Assembly (NCBI GenBank): GCA_022843095.1
Contig: JALHOH010000001.1
Coordinates: 1-32,000, forward strand
Direction: 5' to 3'
DNA: 32,000 nt
Source: Candidatus Saccharimonadota bacterium
GTDB lineage: Bacteria; Patescibacteriota; Patescibacteriia; 2-12-FULL-60-25
Of the stretch, positions 6,438 through 31,818 are shown in pieces. Each line of letters begins with the position of its first letter. Position 1 is the stretch's first letter. A program made the translations under genes and the position numbers. The notes under the pieces were generated by a model, which saw nothing but the letters and a program-made list of their open reading frames with translations, was not told where the DNA came from and ran no database searches.

Positions 6438-6473
6438 TCACGAGTGATCCGTGTGGTTCCGGGAGGACGAAGG
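6438..6473 (-). terminator. Hairpin between the Cas4-like and DUF932 genes (possible attenuator or terminator)
   Basis: 9-bp arms CCCGGAACC / GGTTCCGGG with an 18-nt loop. On the minus strand it is followed by GATTTCTTCTGG. It starts 38 nt downstream of the Cas4-like stop. Confidence 0.3.
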
Positions 6474-6510
6474 TGCGCGTAGAGGAGGAGTTCGCGCGTG
6501 GCGCGTAGCA

Positions 6511-16904: not shown

Positions 16905-18460
16905 CAAAACGCTCCAAAGACAGTGATTCCCTGACCCGTCCACGCTGCACGAACCGTGGGCAGCGAAGGCTCTCGGCGGGTCGCGCCGAGCACGAAGAGG
17001 CTCGTTCCTGCGACGAGGAGCGCGCCACCCGCGATCCAGCCCCCAACGGCGAGCGAACGAAGCGCCGTCTCTCCACTCGCGCCGCTCGAACGAATCCCAC
17101 CGAGCACCGAACCTTCATCACCAATCGTGAGCGAGCGAGACCGCACGATGTCCGCCCCAAACCACGCGGCCGTTCCGCCTCCCGCGAGCACGAGTCCTGA
17201 TGCGCCGAAGACGATGCCGAAGAGCAGCTGCGGGCCGTTCGGTGCCGCGTTCGTGACGCGCACCGGTGCAAGCGCGGTTGGAGCGGTCCGTGGCCGCACG
17301 CGCACGCGCACCTCGGGCAACGCGGTCGTCTCGCGCGCTGCGGCCGTCGTCGTTCCCGTCGAACGCGCGCGAAGGACGCGAGGAAGGTCGCTCCACTCGC
17401 GCTCGTTCACCTCGCGCACCACCGTGCGGGCGATCACGTCGACCACGACGAGCCGCCGTCCCTCGGGCCGAAACACGACGACGCGATCTGCGCCGAGCGC
17501 CGAGCCCAACACGGACACGTCCCCGATCATCCGCGCTTCGAGCTGACCCACGTTTTCATATCGAAGGGTCGGAGAGGTGCCGAGTTCGAGCGCGCGATCG
17601 AGCCCCATGTCGATCTGCACGGTGCTCGTGGTGCCCGCGCCAACGCTCACGCGGTGCACGAGCGACAACCGTCCGCCGCAGCGGATCGCGATGCGATGCG
17701 TTCCAGGGACGAGCCCTTGGAGTTGTGCGGGCGCATTGCCGAGGAAGATGCCGTTTCTCCGCACCTGACACGAGTCCGGAACGCTCTGCACGACGAGGGA
17801 GGCCGTCGCGAGCTGACGGACCTGCTCGCGGTATGCGTTGCGTACCGACTCGCCCGCGACACGCGCGGTGAGGGTCAGATCCGGCAGCGCTTCGACGAGC
17901 TTGCGGATGGCCTCGGCGGAGCGCGAGGGCTCGGACGTAACCGTCACGTTTGCGACGAAGAGCAGCGCCGAGATGAGCGCCTCGCGGTTCTCGCGCATGC
18001 GATCCAGCGCCTCGGGCTGCGCGAGCAAGAGATCGGCGTCGCGCTCGAGCGACTGGAGCGCAGGACGCGTGTCCGCCTCGTGGGAGGTTCCGAGGGCTTC
18101 GTTGTATTGCCTGCGGCTGCGAGGAACGCGCTCGCGTACCTCGCGAAGGGTGTCCCCGCTCGCGTCTGGCGCACCGTATCGTTCCTGCAACTGCGTGACG
18201 AGCGCGGGGCCGAGCACGAGCTGACCGCTCGCACCACGAGCGAGCGTCGAGAGGTCCGCGTCTGTGGCGGCAGGAGTGCCCCGCGGTGCGCTCGTCACGA
18301 CGACGAGCGGCACCGACTGCGCCTCAGCGCGTGCCTCCCATGCGAGCACCGCGAAGAGCGCGCCAAGCGCGAGTACCGCCCGTTCCGCCTTGGGCTTGCT
18401 GTGAGGCCGATCAACCACGGTTGTAGCCATCCACGACCTTCGATTCCGCATCCCCATCAT
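16904..18460 (-). CDS. Secreted/membrane PEGA-like domain protein (518 aa)
   Basis: Signal-like LALGALFAVLAWEARAEA. The central segment VVQSVPDSCQVRRNGIFLGNAPAQLQGLVPGTHRIAIRCGGRLSLVHRVSV resembles a PEGA domain. Two C-terminal hydrophobic segments. Confidence 0.55.
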   Translation of the reverse strand: MMGMRNRRSWMATTVVDRPHSKPKAERAVLALGALFAVLAWEARAEAQSVPLVVVTSAPRGTPAATDADLSTLARGASGQLVLGPALVTQLQERYGAPDASGDTLREVRERVPRSRRQYNEALGTSHEADTRPALQSLERDADLLLAQPEALDRMRENREALISALLFVANVTVTSEPSRSAEAIRKLVEALPDLTLTARVAGESVRNAYREQVRQLATASLVVQSVPDSCQVRRNGIFLGNAPAQLQGLVPGTHRIAIRCGGRLSLVHRVSVGAGTTSTVQIDMGLDRALELGTSPTLRYENVGQLEARMIGDVSVLGSALGADRVVVFRPEGRRLVVVDVIARTVVREVNEREWSDLPRVLRARSTGTTTAAARETTALPEVRVRVRPRTAPTALAPVRVTNAAPNGPQLLFGIVFGASGLVLAGGGTAAWFGADIVRSRSLTIGDEGSVLGGIRSSGASGETALRSLAVGGWIAGGALLVAGTSLFVLGATRREPSLPTVRAAWTGQGITVFGAF

Positions 18461-18490
18461 GAGCTGTCCTCATTTCCCGATCGCGCACGG

Positions 18491-18934
18491 CTACGTGCTC
18501 GCGTCGAGCCCCTTTCGCGTCACCTGGTACTCCGTCGCGCGGGTGGCTCCGCGCTTTGCGATCAACTCGTCGTCGTAGAGCACGCGGAGCGCCTGGGAAA
18601 TCGCGTGCCGATCCGGAGCCGCGGCGAGCTCACGCTTGATGCCCTCGGCCGTCATCCACGCCTTGCTTCGCACGAGCACCGAGAGAATCTCGACGCTCAA
18701 CGGACGTGCGTTCGAGGGGGCGGTGCGTGGAGCCTTTCCGCGCGCGGACTTCGTACGCGGCTTCTTTGGCGCGCGAGCGGCAGGACGAGCACTAGGCGGC
18801 GTGGCGGGAGGCGCATCGCGATCCACCGCGGGCGCGAGTTTGTGAAGCGGAAGCGTCACGAGGAGGCGGATCACGCCGTCGGCGAGCTCTTCGGCGAGCG
18901 CGCGGATGGTGCGGTGGAGTTCGGTGTTGGTCAT
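18491..18934 (-). CDS. Putative winged-helix DNA-binding protein (147 aa)
   Basis: ATG at 18934. A basic, low-complexity middle part is followed by a C-terminal wHTH-like segment, SVEILSVLVRSKAWMTAEGIKRELA...ISQALRVLYDDELIAKRG. Confidence 0.45.
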   Translation of the reverse strand: MTNTELHRTIRALAEELADGVIRLLVTLPLHKLAPAVDRDAPPATPPSARPAARAPKKPRTKSARGKAPRTAPSNARPLSVEILSVLVRSKAWMTAEGIKRELAAAPDRHAISQALRVLYDDELIAKRGATRATEYQVTRKGLDAST

Positions 18935-19037
18935 GGCACGAGTCCAGGAGAGCGTCGCCCACAGCAGGGCTGCTTCTGCGGGTGGTACACGAAACGACGG
19001 CAAACGTCGCTTGGTTCACGACAGAAGGGGTGCATCT

Positions 19038-19646
19038 TCACCCGCCGTTCGCCTTCGGGACGGGGAGCGAACTGGGCGCACCTCCCTGCGCGACGAACCA
19101 CACAACGTCCACCAGCACGCGGTGCATCGTCTTGCCTCCGGACTTCTGGCGGACACTCGCGAGCTGTCCTTCCACGGTCCGAACGGACACGCTGAGGCGC
19201 GCCGCTGTGCCCTCTGGCGTGTGTCCCGCCACGGCGAGCGCAAGAACGCGGGCTTCTGCGCCCGAGAGTCCGAGCTGGTCCGCGTATGCCGACAGCGCGC
19301 GATCGAGCTCGGTGAGCGCGGGGCAGAGCGCGTGCACGAACCGCGAAACGGTGGCGCGAACGGTTCCCACGGAGGCGAGAAAGAGCCGGTCTGCGGCGCG
19401 TGAAAACGCAGCGCTGCTGAACGAGGGACAGAGCACGCACACGAGCACGTTGCGGTGTTCTTCGAGCAGACCACGCACGAGGCGGTTGTGTGGCGCGTTG
19501 AGAACGATGCCGTGGGGCCACGCTGCGGGCGCAGTGAGCGCGTCGACCGCGTCCACCGCCTCGACGTAGCAGAGCGGCGGGATGAGCTCCTCGACCACCG
19601 TCCGCACGGCGGCATCGTCCCGGAGAAAACGAACGCGTGGCATCAT
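19038..19646 (-). CDS. LuxR/GerE-family transcriptional regulator
   Basis: C-terminal LSGAEARVLALAVAGHTPEGTAARLSVSVRTVEGQLASVRQKSG is a GerE-type HTH. The N-terminal part looks like a degenerate receiver. Confidence 0.75.
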   Translation of the reverse strand: MMPRVRFLRDDAAVRTVVEELIPPLCYVEAVDAVDALTAPAAWPHGIVLNAPHNRLVRGLLEEHRNVLVCVLCPSFSSAAFSRAADRLFLASVGTVRATVSRFVHALCPALTELDRALSAYADQLGLSGAEARVLALAVAGHTPEGTAARLSVSVRTVEGQLASVRQKSGGKTMHRVLVDVVWFVAQGGAPSSLPVPKANGG

Positions 19647-19863
19647 GGGCGCGCTATCCACGAGCGCGCGGCGAGGTTGCGGGAGGGCGGTCGTTTTTCT
19701 CGCTCGCGTGGCCGAACGCGCAGCTCAAGCCCTACAAGCAGCGGAACCGGGACGCGCCCCGCGCTGCTGCAGCACAACGGTCACGAGGCACGCCACCAAG
19801 ATCTGTCACAGCTCAGCAACCCGGAGGACGATCAACGCGTGTGTTTTCGCGCCGTTCGTCGAG

Positions 19864-20721
19864 CTACTCGTATGTCGCAAACCCCGCCGCACGCTCGGCG
19901 CGAAACTCAAGCGACTCCGCGCCCATCGGCACTCGAACGGTGCGCGCGAAGGACACCCTCATGCGCCGCCGTGGAAGTGGTCGGAGCAACGCCATGACCT
20001 CCGCAGGAACGTCCATGCGACCGGCGCTCGCGGGCGCGACGCAGTGCACGAGATGGGAGCCGCCCGCCGACTCTACCCAGCTCAGCACCACGCGAAGTTC
20101 GAGTCCTGGATCGTTGTTCGGCAACCAGCGCACCGTGATGTTCGCAGGCAGCGGCTGTGGAACATCGGGACCGGTCGGTTCGGTCACGGTTGGGACCGGC
20201 GGGACGACGAGAGCTGCTTCGAAGCCTGATGCGTCTTGCCCACTCGCGCGAATCCGAACCTCATCCCCTGCGCGCGGAACTGGTTGAGTGATTCCAAGCA
20301 TGTACCCGTTTTCGGTGGCGGGAGGAGCCGTGCGTTGTTGTCCGGCCCAGCGCACAACGAGCTCACCAGCGCTGCGATATTGTGTCGTCGCCGATGTGAC
20401 AGTGTGCGTGCATCCGCCGACCAACGTCATCGTGACGTCCCCTCTCTCAATCGACCAGATGCTTCCATACAATAAGAAGTAGTCGTCCGTTGCCGACTCC
20501 GAGAATCGGCTAAGCAGCAACACACGACCGCTAAGCGGTCCGAGCGGTGCCGCATCTTGAGGTGGCTCGACGACCACACGATCGTCCGGCGCATCCAGTG
20601 GCACATCAGCCGCCGCGTCGTCGGTCGTCGCGCCATCGAGCGACGGCGATACGGCGACACCGCACCCGAGCATCGGAGCGCAGCTCAATACCACGAAAAG
20701 AGCGATCTGATTGAGACTCAT
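19864..20721 (-). CDS. Putative lipoprotein (285 aa)
   Basis: MSLNQIALFVVLSCAPMLGCG looks like a signal peptide with lipobox. ATGA overlap with the upstream Cys-rich gene (20718-20721). Confidence 0.55.
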   Translation of the reverse strand: MSLNQIALFVVLSCAPMLGCGVAVSPSLDGATTDDAAADVPLDAPDDRVVVEPPQDAAPLGPLSGRVLLLSRFSESATDDYFLLYGSIWSIERGDVTMTLVGGCTHTVTSATTQYRSAGELVVRWAGQQRTAPPATENGYMLGITQPVPRAGDEVRIRASGQDASGFEAALVVPPVPTVTEPTGPDVPQPLPANITVRWLPNNDPGLELRVVLSWVESAGGSHLVHCVAPASAGRMDVPAEVMALLRPLPRRRMRVSFARTVRVPMGAESLEFRAERAAGFATYE

Positions 20722-23129
20722 GGGCAAAGACCGTCCTGAGTGTCCATGCCCCGTGGGGGCACGCACTGCCCCTGAAACGCAACCCACGGGGCATCGCAGG
20801 GGCGAACCATGCAGCCGGTGCAGGTCGGCTGACCGCATCCGCCGCACCCATTGCACAAGTTGTTCGAACCGCATTGCGCCCGATTCGAAAGCAGCGAGTC
20901 CGTCGCCCGCTGGCAGTACTGCCCGTCGCAGCAGGGCTGCCCATTCAGTCCGCACGCGACGCAGACTCCGGGGCCATCCGTCGCGGCGTTGTGTCGCGCG
21001 TCCGTTGGATTGCCTGCCGACTGCACGCACGCGAGCCCCAAAGGACCACATCGACGAGGCGTCAGCGCGTTCGGAGCGGCGGGAGGACAAATCAACTCTT
21101 CGGTGAGATCGACTTGGCGTCGCTGCTCGCCGCAGACGTTCGAGGCGAACAGGCCTGGAACGAAGTCATCGGGGACGGCCGTCCCTGCGAGCGTCTGGAG
21201 CGGCGTTCGCGGTGCACCGACAGTCACGCTGGGAGGCGTCCCGATGCGAGCCGTAACGGCGACGTTCGCGACGTTCGAGAGGTCCAAGTCGCAGCAAGGA
21301 TCCCCGGGTTGAACACCGCAACGAACGCAGGTGTTGTTCGCGCCGCAGATTCCGCCAGCGCGACAACGAGACCCCTGAGGAATGCGCGTCGGACCTCCAG
21401 GCAGCGACTGAAATGCCAGTCCGTTGCCCGTGGCTTCTGGGCAGCACGCCTGCCCGAGATCACCACAACGTTGTCCGGGCGGCATCGACGGCGCGCCGGG
21501 CGGATCACTCACAGCGTCCGTTTGTCGCCGATCGCGGCAGACGCCTGCGGCGCACACGAGGTTCGGAAGCACGACCGAGCCTTGGCCGTTCGCGATCAGG
21601 TTCGGGCCCGCCGCGACCCCGCAGGTCGCGCGTCCAAGCCCTTCGCAACAACGCTCGCCCTCCTGTCCGCATGGCATGCACACGGGTGAAGGGGGTGTCC
21701 CGGTGCTTGGGATGCTGCCCGCGACCGTTCCCGGCGCTGGCTGCGGCCACGGATTCGCCGTGAGTCGACGGCCCGCCATTGGCGTGCATGCGGTGTTGCC
21801 CGGACATCTGGGCGCGTTGGGATCGGTTGACGTCTCGATCGCAGGATCGCACCCACGACGACACACGCGCTGAATGCTGCCCGAAGGCTGCGTCGCTCCT
21901 GGTGGATTGTACGGCACGCATCGCGCGGGCATGGTCCCCTGTTGGCAGCAGTCCGAGTCCTGATCGCAACCTTGACCTTGCTGTCGGCAACACGCGTAGC
22001 TGTTGCTGTGATCGTTCGTCGCCCCGCGCAGATGCGTGTTCGGCTGGCAGCTGTCGCAGCCAAGGACACACGGATTCAAGTTCTCCGGCTGCGCTGGTGA
22101 GCCCGCGGGTTCGAGCGCGGTGTACTGCCGGTTCGACACCACGAACTGCTGCTCCTGCGTGCCGGGACGAAGCATCGGGCAACGACCGCTCGGCAGTCGG
22201 GGGAAGCCCGGGCACCAGTCCTGGAGCGACTGAATCGTGTCGGTGGTCGGCCGTGACTCGTATGACGGCAGCGTGCCGCACGTCGCGCTGTGCGGCGTCG
22301 CACGCACGCAGACAGCGACGACGTTTGTCCCTGGGCTACCGAGGTTTGACGGATTGCGTGAGTGCAGCTCACAACGATAGTCGTAGGTGCCGCGCCCGAG
22401 TACCCCGTCACTCACTGGAGGCTGGCAGGCTGCGTTCACGACGGTGGACGGAGCGTTGACGACCGCATCGCATCGCCGCAGGCACACCGTTCCCCGCCCA
22501 CGCGGCGTGCTCGCTCCATCAGGGCGACGCATACACGCGAGACCAGGACCACACGGGCTACACGCGGTGAAGCCGGTCGCGGGCGGGTTCAACACGTTGG
22601 CAAAGTCCGCGTCACAGTCTTCCTGCCCTTCTGCGAGGAGAAGCGAACACAGACCCGGCGCGTTTCGGACGCCGAGCGGTCCACACGTCACGCTGCGGCA
22701 GAACTGTCCCGGCGTTTGAAGGCACGGGTTATTGATCGAGCCGAGGGGCGTGTGTGGGTCACACACGGGCGAGACCGGCCCCTGCTCGGGCGGCGGCGTG
22801 ATCGCGCGACAGACTCCCTCACCGGGCTGACACACGCGATCTCCGCTCAACGGGCACGGCTCGCAACGGAGGTTCGGCCCGCAGACATACGCGGGACGCG
22901 AGCCCGGCACGCATGGATCGAGGTCGCAGCTCGCGCCGTCGCGGTTCGAGACTGCCGCGCACTGACCGACGCAGACCTTTCGCTGTCCAGCCGGACACGG
23001 CCCAACGAACCCACGACCGGGATTGTTGCTGGGATCAACGGTCGGCGAGCACGACGCGAGCACGACGAACATCGTCACCCAGATCGAGATGAACAGCCAC
23101 CGCTCAGTCGCTCTTTTCTTGGAACCCAT
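20718..23129 (-). CDS. Very large cysteine-rich lipoprotein (803 aa)
   Basis: MGSKKRATERWLFISIWVTMFVVLASC is a signal with a LASC lipobox. AGGAG lies upstream of the ATG at 23129. Cysteines are very frequent throughout the protein (not counted), with recurrent CG-x2-G-x(1-2)-CC modules (PCGQEGERCC, RCGDLGQACC, RCGVQPGDPCC, ACGLNGQPCC). Confidence 0.7.
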   Translation of the reverse strand: MGSKKRATERWLFISIWVTMFVVLASCSPTVDPSNNPGRGFVGPCPAGQRKVCVGQCAAVSNRDGASCDLDPCVPGSRPAYVCGPNLRCEPCPLSGDRVCQPGEGVCRAITPPPEQGPVSPVCDPHTPLGSINNPCLQTPGQFCRSVTCGPLGVRNAPGLCSLLLAEGQEDCDADFANVLNPPATGFTACSPCGPGLACMRRPDGASTPRGRGTVCLRRCDAVVNAPSTVVNAACQPPVSDGVLGRGTYDYRCELHSRNPSNLGSPGTNVVAVCVRATPHSATCGTLPSYESRPTTDTIQSLQDWCPGFPRLPSGRCPMLRPGTQEQQFVVSNRQYTALEPAGSPAQPENLNPCVLGCDSCQPNTHLRGATNDHSNSYACCRQQGQGCDQDSDCCQQGTMPARCVPYNPPGATQPSGSIQRVCRRGCDPAIETSTDPNAPRCPGNTACTPMAGRRLTANPWPQPAPGTVAGSIPSTGTPPSPVCMPCGQEGERCCEGLGRATCGVAAGPNLIANGQGSVVLPNLVCAAGVCRDRRQTDAVSDPPGAPSMPPGQRCGDLGQACCPEATGNGLAFQSLPGGPTRIPQGSRCRAGGICGANNTCVRCGVQPGDPCCDLDLSNVANVAVTARIGTPPSVTVGAPRTPLQTLAGTAVPDDFVPGLFASNVCGEQRRQVDLTEELICPPAAPNALTPRRCGPLGLACVQSAGNPTDARHNAATDGPGVCVACGLNGQPCCDGQYCQRATDSLLSNRAQCGSNNLCNGCGGCGQPTCTGCMVRPCDAPWVAFQGQCVPPRGMDTQDGLCP

Positions 23130-23354
23130 CGTCTTCTCCTGTCCCGTCGAGACCCCACGGAGACCGCGCTGCAAGACCGCCGAAAAAACTGCCTCCGGCG
23201 GCGCTCCTGTTCACGGAGAGCTGGGGTGTTTGCACCGTCACTAACTGACTTCTTCCGCGCGCAAAGACGCGAGGATCGTGTCGTAGCGACGACGGGCAGG
23301 AGCTGTCATGCGTACCAGTACCTATGCGCGGACGATTTCCATCATCCGCGTCGG

Positions 23355-24638
23355 TCACTCGAGCTGCGCGCGGAGCTGGGCGTCGCGCCGAGCGCGGGGC
23401 GTGCCATATCGCTCACGCGAGATGCGCCGGATGAGCGCGTCTTGCCCGGCACGTTCGTCATCCTCGAATGGTGGCAACGTCTCCGCCGTGAAGGGTGCGG
23501 AGGTTGTGCCGTTCACGGCGAGACGAAGCGCGATCTGGTGGCGCGCGAGCTTCGTGAGGTCCTCTGCGCGAAGCTCTGGCGCATACAACGGCGCGAGTTG
23601 CTCCGCGTCCTCGGGCCCCACGCGAAACACGGTGGTTGTCCCTGCGTTCCCGAGCACCGCTCGGCCGAGCGCGGGAGAGAGCTGCGCCATGTGCTGGTGC
23701 GCGAGCACGAGCGCGAGGCCAAACTTCCGCGCCTCCACCAAGAGATCCCCGAAGCTCTCCGTCGCGAAAGACGGGAACTCGTCGACGTAGAGCGTGAAGG
23801 GACGGCGCGCGCTCGGGGCCACATCCGCACGCGCATACGCCGCGAGCTGGAACTGACCGAGCAAAAGCGCGCCCAAGAACATCGACGCGTCCTCGCCCAT
23901 CCGTCCCTTCGCGAGGCTCGCGAGCAGCACTCGTCCTTCGTCCATGATCTCGCGCGCAGAGACCGTCGTACGAACCTGCCCAACGATCCCGCGGAGCAGC
24001 GGGTGCGTCAGCGCTGCCGCGATCTTGTTCTGCACGGGGCTCGCCATCTCTGCGCGAAACGCAGGCGGATACGACGGGTACTCCCTCTCCCAGAAGAATC
24101 GCACGATGGGGTTCTGCACCGAGCGCAGCACACGCGCGCGGAAGCGCTCCTCGACCAACATGCGCAGCACGCCGAGCAGCGTTGCGTCACGCACGTCTGC
24201 GAGCGCGAAGAGCGCGTTGCGCAGGAGATGTTCCAGCCGCGGTCCCCACGAGTCGCCGTATACTTTTTTGAACACCGAGAGGACGCCCGAGACGACGAGC
24301 TCGGGTGCTGGTGCGTCGTGCATGTCGAGCGGGTTCAGGCCCACGGGAGCCTCTCGCTCGCTACCATCCACGAGCACGACATCGTTCGTGCGTTCGCGCG
24401 GGACGAAGTCGAGCAGTCGTTCGACCAGGTCTCCGTGCGGATCAAGGAGCCCGACGCCATGCCCTGCGCGCAGCTCTGCGACGAAGAGCCGCTCGATCAG
24501 CACCGACTTGCCGGCACCCGTCTGCCCGATGATGTGGATGTGCCGGGCTGCGTCCGTCGCACGAATTGCAACGATCCGGCCTCGTCCGAGCCGGTGATCG
24601 ATGCGCGCGAAGGGAAGGAGCGACCGGCTGGAGTCCAT
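23355..24638 (-). CDS. T4SS coupling-protein-like (VirD4/TraD/TrwB-type) P-loop ATPase lacking N-terminal TM helices (427 aa)
   Basis: HIIGQTGAGKS (Walker A), GLLDPHGDL, LYVDEFPSFA (Walker B) and LVLAHQHMAQL. I chose the start at ATG 24638 because the upstream extension is antisense to the paralogous plus-strand genes. Confidence 0.65.
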   Translation of the reverse strand: MDSSRSLLPFARIDHRLGRGRIVAIRATDAARHIHIIGQTGAGKSVLIERLFVAELRAGHGVGLLDPHGDLVERLLDFVPRERTNDVVLVDGSEREAPVGLNPLDMHDAPAPELVVSGVLSVFKKVYGDSWGPRLEHLLRNALFALADVRDATLLGVLRMLVEERFRARVLRSVQNPIVRFFWEREYPSYPPAFRAEMASPVQNKIAAALTHPLLRGIVGQVRTTVSAREIMDEGRVLLASLAKGRMGEDASMFLGALLLGQFQLAAYARADVAPSARRPFTLYVDEFPSFATESFGDLLVEARKFGLALVLAHQHMAQLSPALGRAVLGNAGTTTVFRVGPEDAEQLAPLYAPELRAEDLTKLARHQIALRLAVNGTTSAPFTAETLPPFEDDERAGQDALIRRISRERYGTPRARRDAQLRAQLE

Positions 24639-24692
24639 AGGAAAAGAGCGTGCGGTTGACGCGGAGGGCGTCCGTGGATACCGCGAACGATC

Positions 24693-25142
24693 ATGTACAA
24701 AAACGGGAGAGACGTGCTCCGTGCGAGCGGTGCAGCGCAGAGCCTTCACGACGAGGTGATCGCGATCGCTGCGGCGCAGATCGAGGACGATGGGTACATC
24801 GTCGAGACGAACCCTGGACCCGAGAAGAACCGCTCCATCGCGAAGGGCCAGTGGCCGGACATCGTCGCGTCTTCGACGAACGAGGCGAGGAGCACGCTCT
24901 TCCTCGAATGGGTCTTCGAGGTCGAGACCGCGGACTCGGTCACCCGCGAGCAGGCCGTGAACCAATGGGCGGGATACGCAGAGACGGCCTCGGCGCTCGC
25001 GGCGCGCTTCGCGCTCATTGTCCCCTTCGAGTCGGTCGCCCAGGCGCGGGCGCTGCTCGATGAATACGGCATCGAAGGACCGCTCTTCTACTTCGAGCAG
25101 AACAAAGGCAAGGTCACCGTCTCGCTCGATGACCAGCGGTAG
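24693..25142 (+). CDS. 149-aa restriction-endonuclease-fold-like protein, paralog A
   Basis: Shares an ordered motif series with 25244..25693: LHDxVIA, GYxV, PD(I/L)(V/I), F(V/E)(I/V)EVETxDSVT, QWxxYAE, (I/V)VP. The PD...E-V-E pattern fits a variant PD-(D/E)xK core. Confidence 0.6.
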   Translation: MYKNGRDVLRASGAAQSLHDEVIAIAAAQIEDDGYIVETNPGPEKNRSIAKGQWPDIVASSTNEARSTLFLEWVFEVETADSVTREQAVNQWAGYAETASALAARFALIVPFESVAQARALLDEYGIEGPLFYFEQNKGKVTVSLDDQR

Positions 25143-25243
25143 CGGGGGAAGCGCGCGAAGATGGCGCGCCGCGCAGAACACCACGCCGAGCGTGAGGCTC
25201 CGTGGATTGACATCGCCGCCGTGCTGCGCGATCCCCCATTCGT

Positions 25244-25693
25244 ATGACGGGACGGACACGCACGGCAGCGGCGAGCGACCTGCACGACCGCGTCATCGCG
25301 GAGGCGACAGACAACCTGATCGGCGGTGGATATGACGTTGGAGCGAACGCGGGTTCCTCCAAGCGGTTTGTCTTCGCGGACACGCTTTATCCTGACCTCA
25401 TCGTCGGCGAGTTCACCGAGATGCAGACCGGCAGTCTCTCCATCGAGCCCTCGTTCGTGATCGAGGTCGAGACGAGCGACTCCGTCACCGCGGCCGAGGC
25501 CGAACGGCAGTGGAAGCCATACGCGGAAGCAGCGTTCGAGCGCCACATCGACTTCATCCTCGTCGTTCCCGTCGCAGAGATCCTGAAGGCGGAGGACCTC
25601 TGCGAGCGCTTCGATGTCACGGCTCGGGTCATCGGGTACACGGAGAGCGCACGTGGCGTCGTCGTGATCGACTGGGAGGGCGCAGGACTGTAG
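25244..25693 (+). CDS. 149-aa restriction-endonuclease-fold-like protein, paralog B
   Basis: Same length and same motif order as 24693..25142 (DLHDRVIAEA...YPDLIV...FVIEVETSDSVTAAEAERQWKPYAEAA...FILVVP). Confidence 0.6.
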   Translation: MTGRTRTAAASDLHDRVIAEATDNLIGGGYDVGANAGSSKRFVFADTLYPDLIVGEFTEMQTGSLSIEPSFVIEVETSDSVTAAEAERQWKPYAEAAFERHIDFILVVPVAEILKAEDLCERFDVTARVIGYTESARGVVVIDWEGAGL

Positions 25694-25745
25694 CGAGGCG
25701 GGCGCCTTGACCGTCGGACCGAGGGAGCGCCACCATGCAGGGCGT

Positions 25746-26507
25746 ATGGCGAACACCGGGGACGCGCTGTCGCTCCACTCACTCGCGATCCTTCGCGAGC
25801 GGATTCGTGTGCCCGATCGCTACCCGTTCACGGTCCCCACGATCGCAGCCCTGGACACGCTCGAACTGCGGTCGCGCGTGACGTTTTTCGTGGGTGAGAA
25901 CGGCACGGGCAAATCAACGCTCCTCGAAGGCATCGCCCGAGCGTGCGGCTTCAACGCCATGGGCGGGAGCGAGAACATCCACGGTCTGTCGTCGGGCGTT
26001 GGCGAGGAAACCCCTGCAGGACGACTCGCGGAGACGCTTCGGTTGTCTTGGCGAAAAAAGCTGAACACGGGGTTCTTTCTCCGTGCCGAGAGTTTCTACA
26101 ACGTCGCGACGAAGCTCGACGAACTGCAACGCGACGACGCACGAACCCTCCTCGCATACGGGGGAACCTCGCTGCACAAGCGCTCGCACGGCGAAGCGTT
26201 TCTCGCGCTCGCCGAGGCCCGCTTCGATCGCGCGGGGATCTATCTGCTCGATGAACCCGAGGCAGCACTGTCACCCCAGCGACAGCTCGCGTTTCTCATC
26301 CTGCTCGCCCGTGCGCTTCGGGCGCGCGACACGCAGTTCATCATCGCGACGCACTCGCCCATCCTGCTCGCGTTCCCCGGCGCGGACATCTTGTCCTTCG
26401 ACGGCAACACGATCCGCCGCACCACGTACCGCGAGACCGAGGCGTTCAAGATCACGAGCAGTTTCACGGCGAATCCAGAGGCGTTTCTCCGACACCTGCT
26501 TGGCTAG
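25746..26507 (+). CDS. ABC/SMC-head-type P-loop ATPase, COG3910-like (253 aa)
   Basis: VTFFVGENGTGKSTLLEGIA (Walker A), GFFLRAESFYN, SHGEAFL, IYLLDEPEAALSPQRQ (Walker B/D-loop) and FIIATHSPILL (H-loop). ATG at 25746; an alternative TTG lies at 25707. Confidence 0.8.
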   Translation: MANTGDALSLHSLAILRERIRVPDRYPFTVPTIAALDTLELRSRVTFFVGENGTGKSTLLEGIARACGFNAMGGSENIHGLSSGVGEETPAGRLAETLRLSWRKKLNTGFFLRAESFYNVATKLDELQRDDARTLLAYGGTSLHKRSHGEAFLALAEARFDRAGIYLLDEPEAALSPQRQLAFLILLARALRARDTQFIIATHSPILLAFPGADILSFDGNTIRRTTYRETEAFKITSSFTANPEAFLRHLLG

Positions 26508-26565
26508 TGAGCGCCGTTCTCTCGGCGGCACCGCCCCGCAAACCATCGAACGAAGGAGCAGTCCC

Positions 26566-26751
26566 ATGGCGGCGTGTTCAACGTGCAGAGGCTCAGGGCG
26601 CTGTCGGGTGTGTAAAGGCACCGGAAGCAACAAGAAGATCAATCCGCATCCCTCGAAGCCGCTCGTGAACCCGGACACGGGCGACGTGACCTGCCTCGCC
26701 TGCCGAGGCACGGGCTCGTGCATCGACTGTGGCGGCAGCGGCAAGGAGTGA
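26566..26751 (+). CDS. 61-aa DnaJ-type zinc-finger-like protein (4 x CxxCxGxG)
   Basis: MAACSTCRGSGRCRVCKGTGS...CLACRGTGSCIDCGGSGKE contains four CxxCxGxG motifs. GAAGGAG lies 8 nt upstream of the ATG. Confidence 0.7.
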   Translation: MAACSTCRGSGRCRVCKGTGSNKKINPHPSKPLVNPDTGDVTCLACRGTGSCIDCGGSGKE

Positions 26752-26869
26752 ACCCCTCCCGCATGCCCCCGCGCCCGTCACCGAGCGCGAGGGACATGAC
26801 GCATCCGTTGGGGGACCAAGGACGCCATCGCGCGCAGAGCGTGGTGCCTCCGCGCGGACGGGAGAGGAA

Positions 26870-26911
26870 CGCCTGCGGCCGAACCCGTCTCTCAAGACGG
26901 AGCCGCAGGCG
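26870..26911. terminator. Compound GC-rich hairpin between convergent genes
   Basis: Outer 10-bp arms CGCCTGCGGC / GCCGCAGGCG enclose an inner 6-bp stem CCGTCT-ctca-AGACGG. The hairpin overlaps the stop codon of 26892..27740. Confidence 0.45.
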
Positions 26912-27740
26912 TCGCGAAGAGACCGGCGTGCCCTGGATCGTGCTTGCGTGCGGTGGACCACACCGGCTCGAGGATGCGTTCCGGCGTCTCGATGCGGACG
27001 TTGCTCGCTTCCGTGAACCAGAAGAGCCCCGTTCCTGCACGCCCAGCGACGCCGAGGACCGCGTCGCGCAGGCGTTCGAGGCGAGCTCGGTTCGGCACGA
27101 CATAGAGCACGCGAAGCGCCCGCACGCCGAAGCGCGTCTCAGGGCCTTCCGCGCGGAGCCACGCGAGGTATCCCTCTGCTTTCTTCGCGACGCGAGCCGC
27201 GCTCACCGTTCCGCGATCCACTTCGACCAAGAGCGCGTGACGTGTCCCCTGCACGCGCACGGACAGGAACGCATCCGCGACGAGAGGCACGAGTTCGGGC
27301 TTCGGTCCCGCGATCGCCTGCGCGAATCCAATGCGCTCGCGCGAGGTGTCGAACCGTTCGAGCGTGACAACCGCGCGGGCGTGCAGGGCGCGGAACACGA
27401 GCCCGACCTCTGCCACGGCGAGCTCGTGCAAGAGCGTGAGCGCAGAGCGCTTCGCATGCACGGCGCGCGGCATGGGGACGCCGGTCGTGCGTGCGTAGAG
27501 CTTCGCGCCCCTGACGGTGAAGCCATATGCCGTGGTGGACGAGACGCCGAGCGAGAGCGGACGCAACGCCACGAGGAGCTTCGCCCGCACGAGACGATCC
27601 AAGACATCACGGACTTCTTCGAGGGGACGCTCCACGAGGACGGCGAGCTGTCGATCTTCGAGGACTCGGTACAATTTGAGCGCGTCCTGTGCGCGGGCGA
27701 GCCACGGAGGAGGCATGGGAACGAGCAACGGTTGGTGCAT
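26892..27740 (-). CDS. Replication-relaxation (Replic_Relax-like) family protein (282 aa; start uncertain)
   Basis: An N-terminal wHTH-like segment, then LLHELAVAEVGLVF (H-x-L), VADAF and LLVEVDRGTVS. This matches the order of conserved blocks I recall for PF13814-type proteins on plasmids and ICEs. Confidence 0.6.
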   Translation of the reverse strand: MHQPLLVPMPPPWLARAQDALKLYRVLEDRQLAVLVERPLEEVRDVLDRLVRAKLLVALRPLSLGVSSTTAYGFTVRGAKLYARTTGVPMPRAVHAKRSALTLLHELAVAEVGLVFRALHARAVVTLERFDTSRERIGFAQAIAGPKPELVPLVADAFLSVRVQGTRHALLVEVDRGTVSAARVAKKAEGYLAWLRAEGPETRFGVRALRVLYVVPNRARLERLRDAVLGVAGRAGTGLFWFTEASNVRIETPERILEPVWSTARKHDPGHAGLFATPAAPS

Positions 27741-28170
27741 ATCGACGAGGATGAAGCGGTGCGTGCGTGAGCGACGCGACCGCGAGAATGAGGGCGGGCT
27801 CTGCGTGTGGCGCGTCCATCACGACGAGCTCGGGGTACGCGAGGCGAAGCTCGTCCAGAGACGGTGCGCGCTCTGTGAGTGCCGTCGCTGCGGCGCGATC
27901 GAGGATGAGCAGACTGAGCCCTGAACGATCTGCGAGCATGCGAAGGAGCGGTTGAATACGTGTGCGTGACGAACGTGGTCCCGCGAGGACGATGTGCGAG
28001 GGGCGCGTGCGCAAGATGAGCCGCACGAGCGCGAGCGTGATGGGTTCGTCTGCGGCGAAGGTGCCGAGGGCGCGGACGTTCCACGCGTCGAGCGCAGCGA
28101 ACGCGATGCCTTCGCGGGACGCGACGAGCGCGAGCACACGGGGATCACGGCGCGGTGGGCGGTGGTGCAT
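27607..28170 (-). CDS. Hypothetical protein with a RuvX/YqgF-like (RNase H fold) sequence pattern; 3' end doubtful
   Basis: VLALVASREGIAFAALD...LVRLILRTRPSHIVLAGPRSS...GLSLLILDRAAATALTE parallels the YqgF block order, but the first acidic residue is missing. The last ~45 codons are R/P/S-rich and overlap the next gene by 134 nt. Confidence 0.4.
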   Translation of the reverse strand: MHHRPPRRDPRVLALVASREGIAFAALDAWNVRALGTFAADEPITLALVRLILRTRPSHIVLAGPRSSRTRIQPLLRMLADRSGLSLLILDRAAATALTERAPSLDELRLAYPELVVMDAPHAEPALILAVASLTHAPLHPRRYAPTVARSHASSVARPRTGRAQIVPSPRRSTARRPRGASPRRSP

Positions 28171-28894
28171 ATTGGGAGGGAGAGGGTGAGTCTTTGGCCG
28201 CAGCGGCGAGACGACGAACGATCGCGACGAACAGATGTCCGCGGGTCGACACGATCCGTGCGCCAGGAGTTTCGAGCGTCCGTGCGAGCGCGTCTTCGAG
28301 GATGTGGGCCGCATGTTCGCCTGCGAGGCGCTCGAAGGTCCCGAGAAGCGTTGGCGCGTCGAGGACATCCGCGAGGAAGGCCGCGACCACGGCTGGCGCG
28401 CGGGTCTTTCGCGCGGTGGGACCGTCTCCGCGACTCGAATGAAAGAGTTCCGCGAATCGCTCAGTACTGTCCGTACTGAGTACGTTCGTTCGATCCGTAC
28501 CGTCTGTACTGGCAGTACGAAGTTCTGAGTTCGGAGGATTCAGAACCGCTCTTTGAAGAGCGGGTTCTGAATCCGATGCTTGTGCTGAGTGTACTGAGCT
28601 CGGTACGGAAGGACTGTTTGTACGTTCGTACTCAGTACTGAGAGGGGGTGTACTGAGCGAATCCGTGCTTCCGTTCTCAGTACTGAGAGGATCAGTACGA
28701 CCGTACTCAGTACTGAGGGGCTGCGAGAACTCGCCGGAAAACTCGGCGAACTCTCCGAGCCCAAGAAACACACGAAGAGAAATCTCAAGCCTCTGCGTGT
28801 CGACACGCAGCGCAGCCGCCAGGGAGAGGAGCGGCAGGGTCCGCGTGCGACCGCTGCAGGCGATCGAGACGGGGACCCAAGGGTTCAGGGTCAT
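28145..28894 (-). CDS. Hypothetical protein with an internal LSTE repeat region; possible DNA-binding or replication protein
   Basis: ATGA overlap with the upstream gene (28891-28894). The central S/T-rich part is encoded by the palindrome array. The C-terminal ~90 aa are protein-like (…FLADVLDAPTLLGTFERLAGEHAAHILEDALARTLE…RGHLFVAIVRRLA). The coding status of the central part is uncertain. Confidence 0.4.
   Translation of the reverse strand: MTLNPWVPVSIACSGRTRTLPLLSLAAALRVDTQRLEISLRVFLGLGEFAEFSGEFSQPLSTEYGRTDPLSTENGSTDSLSTPPLSTEYERTNSPSVPSSVHSAQASDSEPALQRAVLNPPNSELRTASTDGTDRTNVLSTDSTERFAELFHSSRGDGPTARKTRAPAVVAAFLADVLDAPTLLGTFERLAGEHAAHILEDALARTLETPGARIVSTRGHLFVAIVRRLAAAAKDSPSPSQYAPPPTAP
28460..28717. 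repeat. Array of CTCAGTACTGAG palindromes and GTACTGAG half-sites in an AT-richer patch (putative iterons, oriT or oriV)
   Basis: Perfect 12-bp palindromes at 28631-28642, 28676-28687 and 28706-28717. A 10/12 copy lies at 28460-28471. Half-sites lie at 28473-28480, 28591-28598 and 28650-28657. Many CAGTAC / CCGTAC variants are also present. Local GC is about 50% by spot count. Confidence 0.85.
28536..28574. repeat. 39-bp near-perfect palindrome in the centre of the iteron patch
   Basis: GGATTCAGAACCGCTCTT-tg-AAGAGCGGGTTCTGAATCC. The arms are 18 and 19 nt and differ by one extra G. Confidence 0.85.
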
Positions 28895-29214
28895 AGCATC
28901 ATGGGTTCAAATGGCAGATGCGCGGGCGGCTGTCCGACGCGATGAAGGACATGCACGAGCTCGAGCAGCTCGGCGTCCCCTTCGACGCCGATGCGCGCAA
29001 CGAAGCCGTGGCGCACCAAGCGATCAATGGCTCTTTGGATGCGGTCGAGCGGAACGGCGAGGCGCACGGCCAGGTCTTCACGCACGAGGGTGAGTCTTGC
29101 GGTCACGGGATCTGCGGCAAGCGAGAGCGCGATGAGCACGAGGACATCCGGCGCGGTCAGACGCAGGAGCGCTCGCGCCATCTCTCCGCGGCGGAGGGAC
29201 AGTGGGTCGTTCAT
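28891..29214 (-). CDS. Small winged-helix (MarR-like) DNA-binding protein (107 aa)
   Basis: …LVLIALSLAADPVTARLTLVREDLAVRLAVPLDRIQRAIDRLVRHGFVARIG… is a wHTH-like pattern. ATGA overlaps occur at both ends (29211-29214 and 28891-28894). Confidence 0.5.
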   Translation of the reverse strand: MNDPLSLRRGEMARALLRLTAPDVLVLIALSLAADPVTARLTLVREDLAVRLAVPLDRIQRAIDRLVRHGFVARIGVEGDAELLELVHVLHRVGQPPAHLPFEPMML

Positions 29215-29837
29215 GGGAGGGAGTGCGAAGAATGAGCGAGGGAACGGCGGAGCGTGTCTGCGAGTCCGACGGGGATGGAAGACACGTCCGCGAGCGCCTG
29301 GAGGCTCCAGGGGCAGTATTCGGCGTATGCCGTGACGGCGATGGCGAGCGCGCTCCAGGCGTGGGCGCGATACCGCCGGACGTCGCCACGCGCCGTGCGC
29401 AGGGCGTCGAGCACCGGGCAGACGGTTCGGGTGAGGACGGCAGCGAGCGCGCCCTCTGGGTGCATCCCAGGCCCGAGGAGCGACGCCTTGGCGTCGGGCA
29501 CAGGGCGGACCTCAGCCTGGATCTCGTGGAGGTCTGCGGCTTGGACGGCATGCGTGCGCAGCTCGCGGTGGATGGGGCCTTCACGGCCGATGCGTCCAAC
29601 GACGAGGAGCGCGGGGCGATGCCCCCGCACGATGCGCCCGACGATCCGCCGCACCGCACGACGGCGATGCTCTGGCGTCTTGGCCGCGCGGAGCGACACG
29701 GTCTGAAAGGCGAGCGTCACGGCCGTCTCGGGGACGTGCGGGCGCTCGGTTCTGCCCGGACGCAACGCCAGCCCGAAGCGATCCAGGACAACGAGGCCAC
29801 CCCAACGGGGGGCGAGCACAATGGATGCGAGGGACAT
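29211..29837 (-). CDS. Hypothetical protein, weakly RuvX/YqgF-like (208 aa; alternative start 29873)
   Basis: First gene of the minus-strand operon. SIVLAPRWGGLVVLD...RRIVGRIVRGHRPALLVVGRIG...VRPVPDAKASLLG has the same block order as 27607..28170. Confidence 0.4.
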   Translation of the reverse strand: MSLASIVLAPRWGGLVVLDRFGLALRPGRTERPHVPETAVTLAFQTVSLRAAKTPEHRRRAVRRIVGRIVRGHRPALLVVGRIGREGPIHRELRTHAVQAADLHEIQAEVRPVPDAKASLLGPGMHPEGALAAVLTRTVCPVLDALRTARGDVRRYRAHAWSALAIAVTAYAEYCPWSLQALADVSSIPVGLADTLRRSLAHSSHSLP

Positions 29838-30048
29838 CGAAGACGCCCGCGCAAACTGAAAAACGCGGTCCATACGGAGAGAGTTGGTTACTCTCCGGAC
29901 CGCGGTCTGTTGCGGAGGGAACGCAAGACCGATAGGGTTGCGTCCGCGCTCCGAATCCAAGCGGCGGGCCAAAGAGGCAGTCCGGAATCACGCGAGCCCT
30001 GGTAAGCGGGCGTGATCTCGGGTGTTCGATATCTGTTCGACTCCTGCT

Positions 30049-30165
30049 CTCCGAGGATGCCACATCGGAGCGAAGCGGTAAGGGGGACGAATTTGAGGAT
30101 TCCCCCTGGGTTATCCACACTCGATCCCCACGCCCAACAGAAAAGAGTCCCCTGTGGACTCTTTT
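30049..30165 (+). ncRNA. Candidate structured small RNA or leader ending in an intrinsic terminator
   Basis: Three consecutive hairpins. The first is CTCCGA/TCGGAG (30049-30070). The second is AGGGGGA/TCCCCCT (30081-30107). The third is AAAAGAGTCC-cctgt-GGACTCTTTT (30141-30165), followed by GTGGTTTTCTGGATTTT. No credible ORF. Confidence 0.35.
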
Positions 30166-30223
30166 GTGGTTTTCTGGATTTTCGTCCCCTGACGGAGCGT
30201 ACGTCGCCTGTGGTGTAGTGAAA

Positions 30224-30239
30224 GCCCAAGCGCTTGGGC
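30224..30239. promoter_or_regulatory. 16-bp perfect palindrome upstream of the excisionase gene (possible operator)
   Basis: GCCCAAGCGCTTGGGC, about 100 nt upstream of the xis ATG at 30338. Confidence 0.35.
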
Positions 30240-30337
30240 CATTTTCATTCTTCACAGGAAATTCTATGCTCACGTTGCCTACCGCGCCACAGGCCGAGTC
30301 ATCGACCTGTGCGTGTGCCCATTCACAATCTCAGAGT

Positions 30338-30574
30338 ATGAATGCAGCACAACCCTCGGCACTTCCGAGCGCCGAGGTCATCCTCCTCACGCGACGAGAG
30401 GTCGCGGCGGTTCTGCGCGTCTCGAAGATGACGGTCCTCCGCATGGTGGCGCGCCGAGAGCTTCCCGTGCTCCGCATTGGTGGCGGACTACGGTTCCGAC
30501 GCACCGACGTGTTCGGGCTCTTGGCCGACTACCGCGCTGATCCACGCAAACCACAGCACTATGGCGACACGTAA
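30338..30574 (+). CDS. xis: Excisionase-family (MerR/HTH_17-like) DNA-binding protein (78 aa)
   Basis: LLTRREVAAVLRVSKMTVLRMVARRELPVLRIGGGLRFRRTDV is the typical excisionase HTH. It lies directly upstream of the integrase gene and overlaps it by 14 nt. Confidence 0.75.
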   Translation: MNAAQPSALPSAEVILLTRREVAAVLRVSKMTVLRMVARRELPVLRIGGGLRFRRTDVFGLLADYRADPRKPQHYGDT

Positions 30575-31697
30575 GATCCGGGGCTGGTGGAACGTCGACC
30601 TTTACTGGAACGGCGTCCGGTACCGCAAGAGGAGCCCACTGAACACGCGGATGGGCGCAGAGCAGTACGAGATCCAGCTCCGGCAAGAGCTGCTCAGCAA
30701 GGGATCGCTCGATCACCTCGACCCGACGCGCGCCGAGAAGCCGCTCACCTTCGGGGAGTTCGCGGAACGTTGGATGCTGGAATATGTCGCGGTGAACAAC
30801 AAGCCCAGCGAACAGAAGGCGAAGCGAGGCCAACTTCGTTGTCACATCCTTCCGAGATTCGGTGAATTCGCGCTAAACGAGATCACCAACGGGGAAGTCG
30901 AGCGCTTCAAGGCAGAACTGCTCGGGAAGAAGCTCTGCGCCAAGAGCATCAACAACTCGCTGACGATACTTCGGAAGTGCTTGGTCACCGCGAGTGAATG
31001 GGGGCTCCTTGAGAATGTCCCAAGAATCCGCCCCCTTCGGACTGCACGTCCGACCTACCGATACCTCCAGCAGGAAGAGGAGATGGCGCTTTTGTCCGCC
31101 GCGAAGCCATTCCGGTTCTGGTACGCAGCCATCCTTCTGGCTCTGCGGACAGGAATGCGATTCTCGGAAGTGTCCGCGCTGGCGTGGAAAGACATCGATC
31201 CGTCACGAGGCGATGCGACTGTACGCCGGGCAAATGTTCGGGGGCATATCGGCCCAACCAAGACATACACCGTACGGCGAGTCCCCCTCAGCACGGACGC
31301 ACGAGCGGCGCTCGAACAACTGGTGAAAAATGACGAATACGTCTTCGGGTATGGAGGAAAGCCCCTGTCGTACCACACAGCCTACGAGTGGCTCGTGCGG
31401 CTCTGTGAGCGCGCCGGGATCGATCCCTGCGGCTGGCATGACCTTCGCCACACCTTCGCGAGCCGCCTCGTCGCTCGCGGCGCGCCACTCCGCGCGATTC
31501 AAGAACTGCTCGGTCATGGATCGCTGGACATGACGCTCCGGTACGCCCACGTCGGACAGGCCGAACTCGTGGCCGCTGTCGCGCTTCTCGAAACTACCCC
31601 TAGTACTTGGGCACAGGGTGGGCACAACCCACCAGATGGAGCAAAAACCCACACGAAAACCGAGGCGCTCGCCACCGCAATTTCTCGCTGGAACTAA
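30561..31697 (+). CDS. int: Tyrosine integrase (phage-integrase family), 378 aa
   Basis: An N-terminal SAM-like core-binding region. Catalytic pattern LRTGMRFSE (R), WHDLRHTF (HxxR), LLGHGSLDMTLRYAH (H...Y). Adjacent to the tRNA-Tyr gene. Confidence 0.95.
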   Translation: MATRKIRGWWNVDLYWNGVRYRKRSPLNTRMGAEQYEIQLRQELLSKGSLDHLDPTRAEKPLTFGEFAERWMLEYVAVNNKPSEQKAKRGQLRCHILPRFGEFALNEITNGEVERFKAELLGKKLCAKSINNSLTILRKCLVTASEWGLLENVPRIRPLRTARPTYRYLQQEEEMALLSAAKPFRFWYAAILLALRTGMRFSEVSALAWKDIDPSRGDATVRRANVRGHIGPTKTYTVRRVPLSTDARAALEQLVKNDEYVFGYGGKPLSYHTAYEWLVRLCERAGIDPCGWHDLRHTFASRLVARGAPLRAIQELLGHGSLDMTLRYAHVGQAELVAAVALLETTPSTWAQGGHNPPDGAKTHTKTEALATAISRWN

Positions 31698-31731: not shown

Positions 31732-31818
31732 TGGTGGGCAGGCAAGGATTCGAACCTTGGAAGGCACAGGGCCAACAGATTTACAGTCTGTCCCGTTTGA
31801 CCGCTTCGGTACCTGCCC
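31732..31818 (-). tRNA. tRNA-Tyr (anticodon GUA), CCA encoded
   Basis: The reverse complement folds as acceptor GGGCAGG/CCTGCCC, D stem CCG/CGG, anticodon arm ACAGA-CTGTAAA-TCTGT, a long variable arm, and T arm CAAGG-TTCGAAT-CCTTG, followed by A-CCA. Confidence 0.9.

Follow-up and report, generated by a model that had tools for sequence, protein, structure and literature searches.

Two predicted PD-(D/E)xK-fold paralogs, an ATPase and a zinc mini-protein in an integrative element of a Candidatus Saccharimonadota bacterium: probably separate units rather than one system

We analyzed a cluster of four genes (positions 24693-26751) in a 32,000-nt stretch of DNA from a Candidatus Saccharimonadota bacterium (contig JALHOH010000001.1, positions 1 to 32,000; the whole stretch is referred to below as the window). 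All four genes lie on the + strand. The first two open reading frames (ORFs), paralog A (24693..25142) and paralog B (25244..25693), each code for a protein of 149 aa. They are followed by the gene of a stand-alone ATPase of the type found in ATP-binding cassette (ABC) proteins and structural maintenance of chromosomes (SMC) heads (253 aa, 25746..26507) and by that of a mini-protein of 61 aa (26566..26751), whose translation contains four CxxCxGxG motifs. The gaps between consecutive genes are 101, 52 and 58 bp. Across a divergent spacer of 54 bp, A faces the start (24638) of a - strand gene (23355..24638) for a coupling-protein-like ATPase of 427 aa (type IV coupling protein, T4CP; Pfam TrwB_AAD_bind, expect value (E) 7.6e-11, 41.9 bits against a cut-off of 20.5; also DUF87). 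On the other side, convergent with the cluster, lies a - strand gene (26892..27740) for a relaxase-like protein of the replication-relaxation family (Pfam Replic_Relax, E 1.8e-15). The cluster thus sits between the coupling-protein gene and the relaxase-like gene of an element that is probably integrated at tRNA-Tyr. A preliminary description of this DNA had reported the same four ORFs and the same divergent spacer, and both were found as described; it had also suggested that the four genes may make up a single ATPase-nuclease system, and that suggestion is not supported by the comparisons presented below.

The genes themselves appear to be genuine. Their G+C content at third codon positions (GC3) is 0.79-0.84, and most of the substitutions that separate them from the 97-98% identical copies of the element are synonymous (6 of 9 in A, 11 of 12 in B and 12 of 16 in the ATPase gene). 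Taken together, these two features indicate real, constrained genes.

Paralogs A and B are 35% identical over 136 aa (BLASTP, E 2e-20). The ordered motif set by which their relationship had been noticed is present in both (A/B: LHDEVIA/LHDRVIA, GYIV/GYDV, PDIV/PDLI, EVETADSVT/EVETSDSVT, QWAGYAE/QWKPYAE and IVP/VVP), except that A has F rather than I or V before EVET. AlphaFold2 (AF2) modeled both with high predicted local distance difference test (pLDDT) scores, 91.2 for A and 94.5 for B. In either model a helix, three strands, a helix, a strand, a helix and two strands follow one another, and they include the alpha-beta-beta-beta-alpha-beta core that defines the PD-(D/E)xK superfamily. In the AF2 secondary structure of A, strand 2 opens with D56 and strand 3 closes with E76-x-E78, an order that corresponds to the canonical PD-(D/E)xK layout. 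Foldseek searches against BFVD, a set of predicted viral proteins, returned endonuclease I, MmcB-like proteins, a Holliday junction resolvase and VRR-NUC (E 5e-4 to 5e-3, TM scores 0.3-0.55). The top matches in PDB were weak, yet came from the same superfamily (CdiA-CT, YaeQ, BsmI, MUS81 and PspGI). The suggestion that the paralogs have a restriction-endonuclease-like PD-(D/E)xK fold is supported by the AF2 core, by the BFVD matches and by weak Pfam matches of individual relatives (AHJR-like, HSDR_N_2, Uma2, BsuBI_PstI_RE and Hjc). A pseudo-dimer model based on a fused A-linker-B alignment was dropped because MAFFT aligned all homologs with the A half.

Despite the common fold, neither paralog could be assigned to a named family above threshold in Pfam, NCBIfam, PHROGs or PADLOC. 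The only Pfam match of A and B was DUF7093 (E 0.027, below the cut-off), PADLOC gave either nothing or E 0.028, and a sequence profile search of PDB gave no match. Word-index homolog searches, run with A and with the zinc mini-protein, found near-identical copies only, tblastn of the same two proteins against plasmids found nothing, and a search of genomes with a profile of the A/B alignment yielded only 2 loci. It was an exhaustive profile search that revealed the nuclease-like family, with 369 representative clusters (50% identity) at E<=1e-3. The stricter limit of E<=1e-10 was passed by 58 of these, and most of the 369 representatives are 110-150 aa long. When 110 members were compared with Pfam, none passed the threshold of any family, the best match being AHJR-like at 9.7e-5. 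A and B belong to a new family within a known superfamily.

The family has a near-invariant signature, HD...NPG...PD...ExET...QWxxY. Across the 110 members D56, E78 and W92 (A numbering) are invariant, and H19, D20, N40, P55, E76, T79, Q91 and P111 are at least 90% conserved. Judging from the alignment, H19, D20, D56, E76 and E78 are the candidate catalytic residues of A, matched in B by H14, D15, D51, E74 and E76. As both proteins keep every conserved residue, neither looks like a degenerate partner of the other. The conservation also agrees with the preliminary description in that the usual catalytic Lys of (D/E)xK is absent, its position being occupied by Glu. Such an arrangement has been described for BamHI, OkrAI and a few other enzymes, which have Glu at the Lys position and are active; the site of BamHI and OkrAI is E...D...ExE (PMC3025578). 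The acidic triad D56, E76 and E78 would match this BamHI-type D...ExE site, and the near-invariance of these residues and of HD is what a metal-binding active site predicts. On the strength of the models and of the conservation, A and B may be regarded as putative metal-dependent DNA-directed endonucleases acting as homodimers or heterodimers.

Members of the family come in different forms and are found in different settings. The long form dominates the matches in soil metagenomes (loci L019-L138, e.g. L036:12238-13416 and L051:6307-7281; median GC 65%; the proteins include P0099, P0106, P0119 and P0146). It starts with the N-terminus SPILVRPVREQLEHDRVIR and carries a C-terminal Ala/Lys/Pro-rich, histone H1-like tail of 60-250 aa that ends in QKRK or KRR. 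This composition suggests that the long form, with the same fold, is a chromosomal DNA-associated protein. In four independent loci (L003:142-1172, L047:734-1688, L111:3058-3779 and L096:705-1608) the gene of a short form is directly followed by a gene for a conserved protein of about 180 aa with an N-terminal hydrophobic segment. The versions of this protein in L003 and L047 are 35% identical (E 9e-20), and it has no Pfam or PADLOC match. The four loci come from a Rikenellaceae metagenome-assembled genome (MAG; L003) and from metagenome contigs (L047, L111 and L096), and their GC content is 29-52%, with that of L003 not among the values computed for this range. The short-form gene and the gene for the membrane protein of about 180 aa constitute a candidate two-gene module.

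Some short-form relatives have neighbors linked to restriction-modification (R-M) or defence. In L096 the relative lies beside ThsB_TIR, a PLD-SNF2 helicase and an Eco57I methylase, and in L121 beside a methylase that is accompanied by an HATPase_c_3 protein. The pair in L003 abuts an ORF of 1006 aa, which from its translation alone looks like an HsdR-type subunit of a type I restriction enzyme. The presence of short-form relatives in R-M and defence islands leans towards a conflict role for A and B. Two further members were found in IMG/VR viral contigs (L139:13733-14107, E 4e-15, and L141:196-696, E 2e-17), so the family occurs also in contigs classed as viral.

The third protein of the cluster had been described as an ABC/SMC-head-type ATPase with intact motifs, and we came to the same assignment. 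It has Walker A (GENGTGKST), the Walker B/D-loop region (IYLLDEPEAALS) and an H-loop (ATHSP), and it passes the Pfam cut-offs for AAA_21 (E 1.6e-14) and AAA_15 (E 9.9e-13). A TTG codon at 25707 would open a longer ORF of 266 aa, and a version of the protein with 266 aa is on record from NCBI (P0276); we chose the ATG at 25746 as the start because homologs align from MAN... and because the gene calls of near-identical contigs agree with it. The ATPase belongs to a huge family of at least 8000 clusters at E<=1e-10. Among the best 120 clusters, identity is 49-59%, apart from a single near-identical cluster at 95%; their hosts include Bacillales, candidate phyla radiation bacteria and Acidobacteria-like MAGs, and the Joint Genome Institute (JGI) label of the relatives is 'predicted ATPase'. 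In all 8 of the other contexts for which DNA was available (chromosomes and plasmids) the ATPase is a single gene with unrelated neighbors, and it is likewise solitary in a ninth context for which only gene calls were available. Homologs with 50-56% identity are single chromosomal genes near ffh, a histone-deacetylase-family gene and other housekeeping genes.

The ATPase has no full-length match to the ATPase models of Gabija, Septu, PARIS, Lamassu or OLD. Its best PADLOC matches (AriA at 1.5e-16, mad3, PtuA and GajA) align only residues ~38-70 and ~155-210 of 253, and the NCBIfam PtuA model scores 38 bits against a cut-off of 500. The protein may be a minimal ABC-type nucleotide-dependent dimeriser.

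The mini-protein has exactly four CxxCxGxG motifs (residues 4-11, 13-20, 43-50 and 52-59), joined by a linker of the form NPHPS...LVN..TGDV.CLAC. The Pfam model DnaJ_CXXCXGXG (PF00684) aligns with residues 4-56 at 17.4 bits, below its cut-off of 32.7, and DUF7895 scores 22.8 against a cut-off of 27. Its earlier characterization as a minimal DnaJ-type zinc-knuckle protein preceded by a Shine-Dalgarno (SD) sequence, AAGGAG, holds. Scans of metagenome and viral contigs for the zinc protein found nothing, and a literature search on CxxCxGxG in connection with ATPases and defence gave DnaJ papers only. A homolog was nevertheless found next to an ATPase relative. L006, an AT-rich contig of an unrelated element that also has an integrase and an ORF6N gene, encodes an ATPase with 56% identity to ours, and 59 nt downstream of it lies an ORF of 61 aa that was missed by gene callers. 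The encoded protein is 52% identical to the mini-protein and keeps all Cys and Gly positions as well as the linker; the nuclease-like gene is absent from L006. The genes of the ATPase and the mini-protein are probably co-transcribed, with the mini-protein most likely serving the ATPase as an adaptor or regulator.

These data bear on an explanation in which A and B would be catalytically inert DNA-binding proteins, such as regulators or nucleoid-associated factors, that have only the fold of a nuclease, and the ATPase would be a captured housekeeping-type gene without a role related to the element. The missing canonical lysine is in line with it, as are the many relatives whose H1-like tail suggests DNA binding rather than cutting, and so is the solitary, housekeeping-gene setting of the ATPase homologs. 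We nevertheless regard this explanation as highly improbable, given that D56, E76, E78 and HD are near-invariant even in 110 diverse members, that BamHI and OkrAI are catalytically competent with Glu at the Lys position (PMC3025578), and that the pairing of the ATPase with the zinc protein recurs on a second mobile element.

A second element, L150, is related to that of the window over several genes: the T4CPs are 54%, the Replic_Relax proteins 40%, the integrases 43% and the PDDEXK_1 proteins 32% identical. L150 has a single member of the nuclease-like family, P0012, which is 37% identical to A and 33% to B, shares the N-terminal extension of A and is among the closest non-identical relatives. 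It occupies the position of A, separated from the divergently oriented T4CP gene by 34 bp. Where the window has B, the ATPase and the zinc protein, the slot between P0012 and Replic_Relax (L150:6085-7247, - strand) holds a gene for a Cys-rich protein of 97 aa, which may be a zinc ribbon, and a ParB-like gene (HTH_ParB, E 2.6e-5). The view that the cluster occupies a variable slot of an integrative element beside the coupling-protein gene is thus in agreement with the different gene content of the slot in L150.

The conserved neighborhood of the T4CP gene suggests yet another role. A, with or without B, might take part in the DNA processing of the element itself, as a nicking or resolving nuclease that works with the T4CP and Replic_Relax, and would then be neither cargo nor a defence protein. 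The divergent position next to the T4CP gene has been kept in two elements although their T4CPs have diverged as far as noted above, and Holliday junction resolvases and endonuclease I are among the best matches to the fold. There is also a precedent, since MOBC relaxases are related to restriction endonucleases, as stated in a passage of PMC6499999 that cites Francia et al. 2013. On the other hand, more distant T4CP relatives (30-39% identity; L148, L149 and L152) have no family member nearby, and in an Embleya plasmid the T4CP gene is directly adjacent to Replic_Relax. Most members of the family reside outside such elements, next to R-M genes, next to the transmembrane partner or with a fused basic tail. 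Moreover, a protein of 149 aa is much smaller than known relaxases, and neither paralog has a Pfam match to MOBC or any other relaxase. We therefore consider a dedicated processing role unlikely, while the T4CP synteny together with the MOBC precedent would be compatible with a role in transfer.

The signals upstream of the genes may also divide the cluster. A, B and the ATPase gene are each preceded by a -35-like TTGAC box on the + strand: TTGACG (24656..24661) 37 nt upstream of the ATG of A, TTGACA (25207..25212) 37 nt upstream of that of B, and TTGACC (25707..25712) 39 nt upstream of that of the ATPase. These are exactly the three + strand occurrences of TTGAC in 24400-26900, out of 19 in the whole 32 kb; the pattern with exact spacing is expected 0.59 times per window. 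The mini-protein gene has no such box. It is the only gene of the cluster with an SD sequence (26553..26558, + strand, 7 nt upstream of its ATG), and A, B and the ATPase gene have none, so their transcripts could be leaderless or have a very short leader. Separate boxes before A, B and the ATPase gene argue for separate transcription units. Read in this way, the sequence would contain three of them: A, B, and the ATPase gene together with the gene of the zinc protein.

If the four proteins formed one system, their families would be expected to travel together, and co-occurrence beyond this genome had been named in advance as the test. The result was negative: all four families are found together only in copies of the element that are 97-98% identical. 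A degenerate DNA pattern for EVET..S(V/I)..QW..Y retrieved 120 metagenome stretches, 119 of which contain true family members. None of these 119 other loci (28 with at least 1.5 kb of downstream and 40 with at least 1.5 kb of upstream sequence) has a second copy, an ATPase homolog or a zinc protein. Conversely, no member of the nuclease-like family is present in any of the 8 other ATPase contexts. The absence of four-way co-occurrence outside near-identical copies means that a four-part system is not supported.

The system that had been proposed would be a cargo defence system, in which a heterodimeric A/B nuclease is sensed or regulated by the ABC ATPase and the zinc adaptor. Several observations do speak for it and, equally, against a division of the cluster into separate units. 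All four genes point the same way with short gaps between them, and the only terminator-like site detected on the + strand (26029-26041) is inside the ATPase gene and not in a gap. While the genes differ by about 2% among copies of the element, the four spacers of the cluster show 0 differences in ~263 bp, an observation that carries less weight because divergence among the copies is patchy. AAA_15/AAA_21 motifs are common to the ATPase and to AriA, PtuA and GajA, and short-form relatives are found in R-M and defence islands (L003, L096 and L121). The promoter argument is weakened by the lack of a convincing -10 hexamer, and a generic promoter scan found none. The sample of family contexts consists mostly of one long-tailed soil subfamily and of short contigs, and absence elsewhere would be compatible with a lineage-specific system, which stays conceivable. 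No Foldseek match to a solved structure has an E at or below 1e-3, and the T4CP synteny and the ATPase-zinc protein pairing were each observed in no more than two independent elements. Still, a single four-gene system appears very unlikely to us. In addition to the failed co-occurrence, L150 has the nuclease-like gene alone and L006 the ATPase and zinc protein alone. PADLOC models cover no more than about 50 residues at either terminus of the ATPase, whose 253 aa compare with 400-600 aa in defence ATPases. A, B and the ATPase gene moreover each have a TTGAC box of their own.

We consider it probable, albeit with considerable room for doubt, that the cluster region is the variable part of an integrative mobilisable or conjugative element and that it accommodates separate units rather than one system, with B a second, anciently diverged copy. 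The first unit would be A, a family member encoded beside the T4CP gene of the element, and its copy B would have a TTGAC box of its own. Both proteins would act as dimeric metal-dependent DNA-directed endonucleases. They would probably serve the element, by attacking DNA that competes with it or by processing intermediates of transfer or integration. The second unit would consist of the ATPase, drawn from a huge family whose members are usually solitary, and the zinc mini-protein, which would serve as its adaptor or regulator.

The genes around the cluster are those by which integrative elements are recognized, with a coupling protein, a relaxase-like protein and an integrase whose gene adjoins that of a tRNA. 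The open frame of the tyrosine integrase spans 30432..31697 (+ strand; Pfam Phage_integrase, E 1e-31), and by alignment its true start is probably near 30560, as the L150 integrase aligns from 30561. The adjoining tRNA-Tyr (31732..31818, - strand; ARAGORN and Rfam), one of only two tRNAs that made up the whole output of an Rfam scan of the window, is the probable integration site. A MarR-like gene is also located on the element. No attachment (att) repeat was found in the window, the 3' region of tRNA-Tyr having no repeat longer than 12-14 nt, and for this reason the left end of the element is undefined; it may lie outside the window, or the repeat may be too short to detect. At 5316-7545 the window has a PDDEXK_1/Cas4-like nuclease gene (6511-7545, - strand, E 1.3e-28) and an adjoining gene for a protein of 344 aa, whose counterparts in L150 are 32% and 27% identical, respectively. 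The element may thus reach back to about 5300, in which case it may have ~16 kb of genes (7.5-23 kb) that L150 lacks.

Several water-treatment metagenomes contain copies with 97-98% identity, and so does a MAG with the title Deltaproteobacteria bacterium Ga0077539. Over positions 16566-31017, where L017, L018, L001 and L002 were compared with the window, divergence is mosaic: stretches of several kb with zero differences (e.g. 19200-22800) alternate with patches of 2-20% divergence, which suggests recombination among element variants. The most divergent stretch, with 45 variable sites in 200 bp, coincides with three copies of a 26-nt direct repeat (GTACGTTCGTACTCAGTACTGAGAGG) at 28620-28720, each containing the palindrome CTCAGTACTGAG. 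The repeats lie within an ORF of 249 aa upstream of Replic_Relax, and they could be binding sites of the iteron or origin of transfer (oriT) type, or merely encode a repetitive PLSTE peptide. An extremely Cys-, Pro- and Gly-rich protein of 818 aa (20718-23174, - strand) has a hydrophobic N-terminal stretch (WLFISIWVTMFVVLASC), perhaps a signal sequence or one of lipoprotein type. It has no Pfam match, and it belongs to the element because the region from 16566 onwards is shared with L017 at 98%. Near the start of the window, a low-GC island (1882-5090, - strand; 51-57% GC, compared with ~66% outside it) carries a gene for a C-5 cytosine DNA methylase (E 1.7e-59) and, beside it, one for a protein of 712 aa with an N-terminal HATPase_c_3 domain and a weak match to SduA_C (Shedu nuclease). 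This pair looks like an R-M or defence module, and a methylase and HATPase_c_3 pair also flanks the nuclease-like family member in L121.

What is new here is a family within a known superfamily and two modest gene linkages. The tempting call of a new defence system is removed, since adjacency on a mobile element is not backed by co-occurrence. In its place, an unannotated minimal restriction-enzyme-fold family with a rare all-acidic D...ExE site has been defined, with recurring partnerships with a coupling-protein gene and with a membrane protein of about 180 aa. The pairing of an orphan ABC-type ATPase with a zinc mini-protein of 61 aa is a possible handle on the function of a large ATPase family. 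A bolder idea would be that A and B represent a widespread BamHI-like class of mini-nucleases with interchangeable partners in mobile elements and defence islands, and that here the A/B heterodimer is gated by the ATPase and the zinc protein in a lineage-specific, ATP-gated four-part system. In Bacteroidota-like loci the partner would then be a transmembrane protein and in soil bacteria a basic tail, and in the present element it would be the surroundings of the coupling-protein gene. We consider this idea very improbable.

Comparison with characterized proteins places each component near known systems and at the same time sets it apart from them. By their predicted layout, A and B would share with BamHI and OkrAI an acidic residue on helix 1, an Asp with which strand 2 begins and a Glu-x-Glu on strand 3 (PMC3025578). 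However, these enzymes have no detectable sequence similarity to A and B, whose family (~130-150 aa) is devoid of type II DNA-recognition elaborations; helix 1 of A and B carries HD instead of the single E of BamHI and OkrAI, and no methyltransferase partner is adjacent. In size and in the alpha-beta-beta-beta-alpha-beta core, the closest counterparts are the minimal PD-(D/E)xK nucleases (archaeal Hjc/AHJR-like, T7 endonuclease I, VRR-NUC and MmcB-like), which supply both the top BFVD matches and the most frequent of the weak Pfam matches within the family, yet matches to them are below family thresholds, NPG, ExET and QWxxY are specific to the A/B family, and Lys is replaced by Glu. MOBC relaxases, according to the passage cited above, resemble A in being proteins with a restriction endonuclease fold encoded beside genes for conjugative DNA transfer, whereas A and B have no sequence match to them, are much smaller and have most of their relatives outside conjugative elements. 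The ATPase shares the AAA_15/AAA_21-type Walker A, signature, Walker B and H-loop with GajA (Gabija), PtuA (Septu/retron), AriA (PARIS) and OLD, but at 253 aa it lacks an insertion with a dimerisation or coiled-coil region, and a nuclease is neither fused to it nor conserved as its partner. Finally, the four CxxCxGxG repeats of the mini-protein are those of the cysteine-rich (CR) domain of DnaJ, and by analogy it could coordinate two zinc ions. Unlike DnaJ, it has neither a J domain nor C-terminal domains, its repeats 1-2 and 3-4 directly abut, and the NPHPS...TGDV linker between them is specific to the mini-protein.

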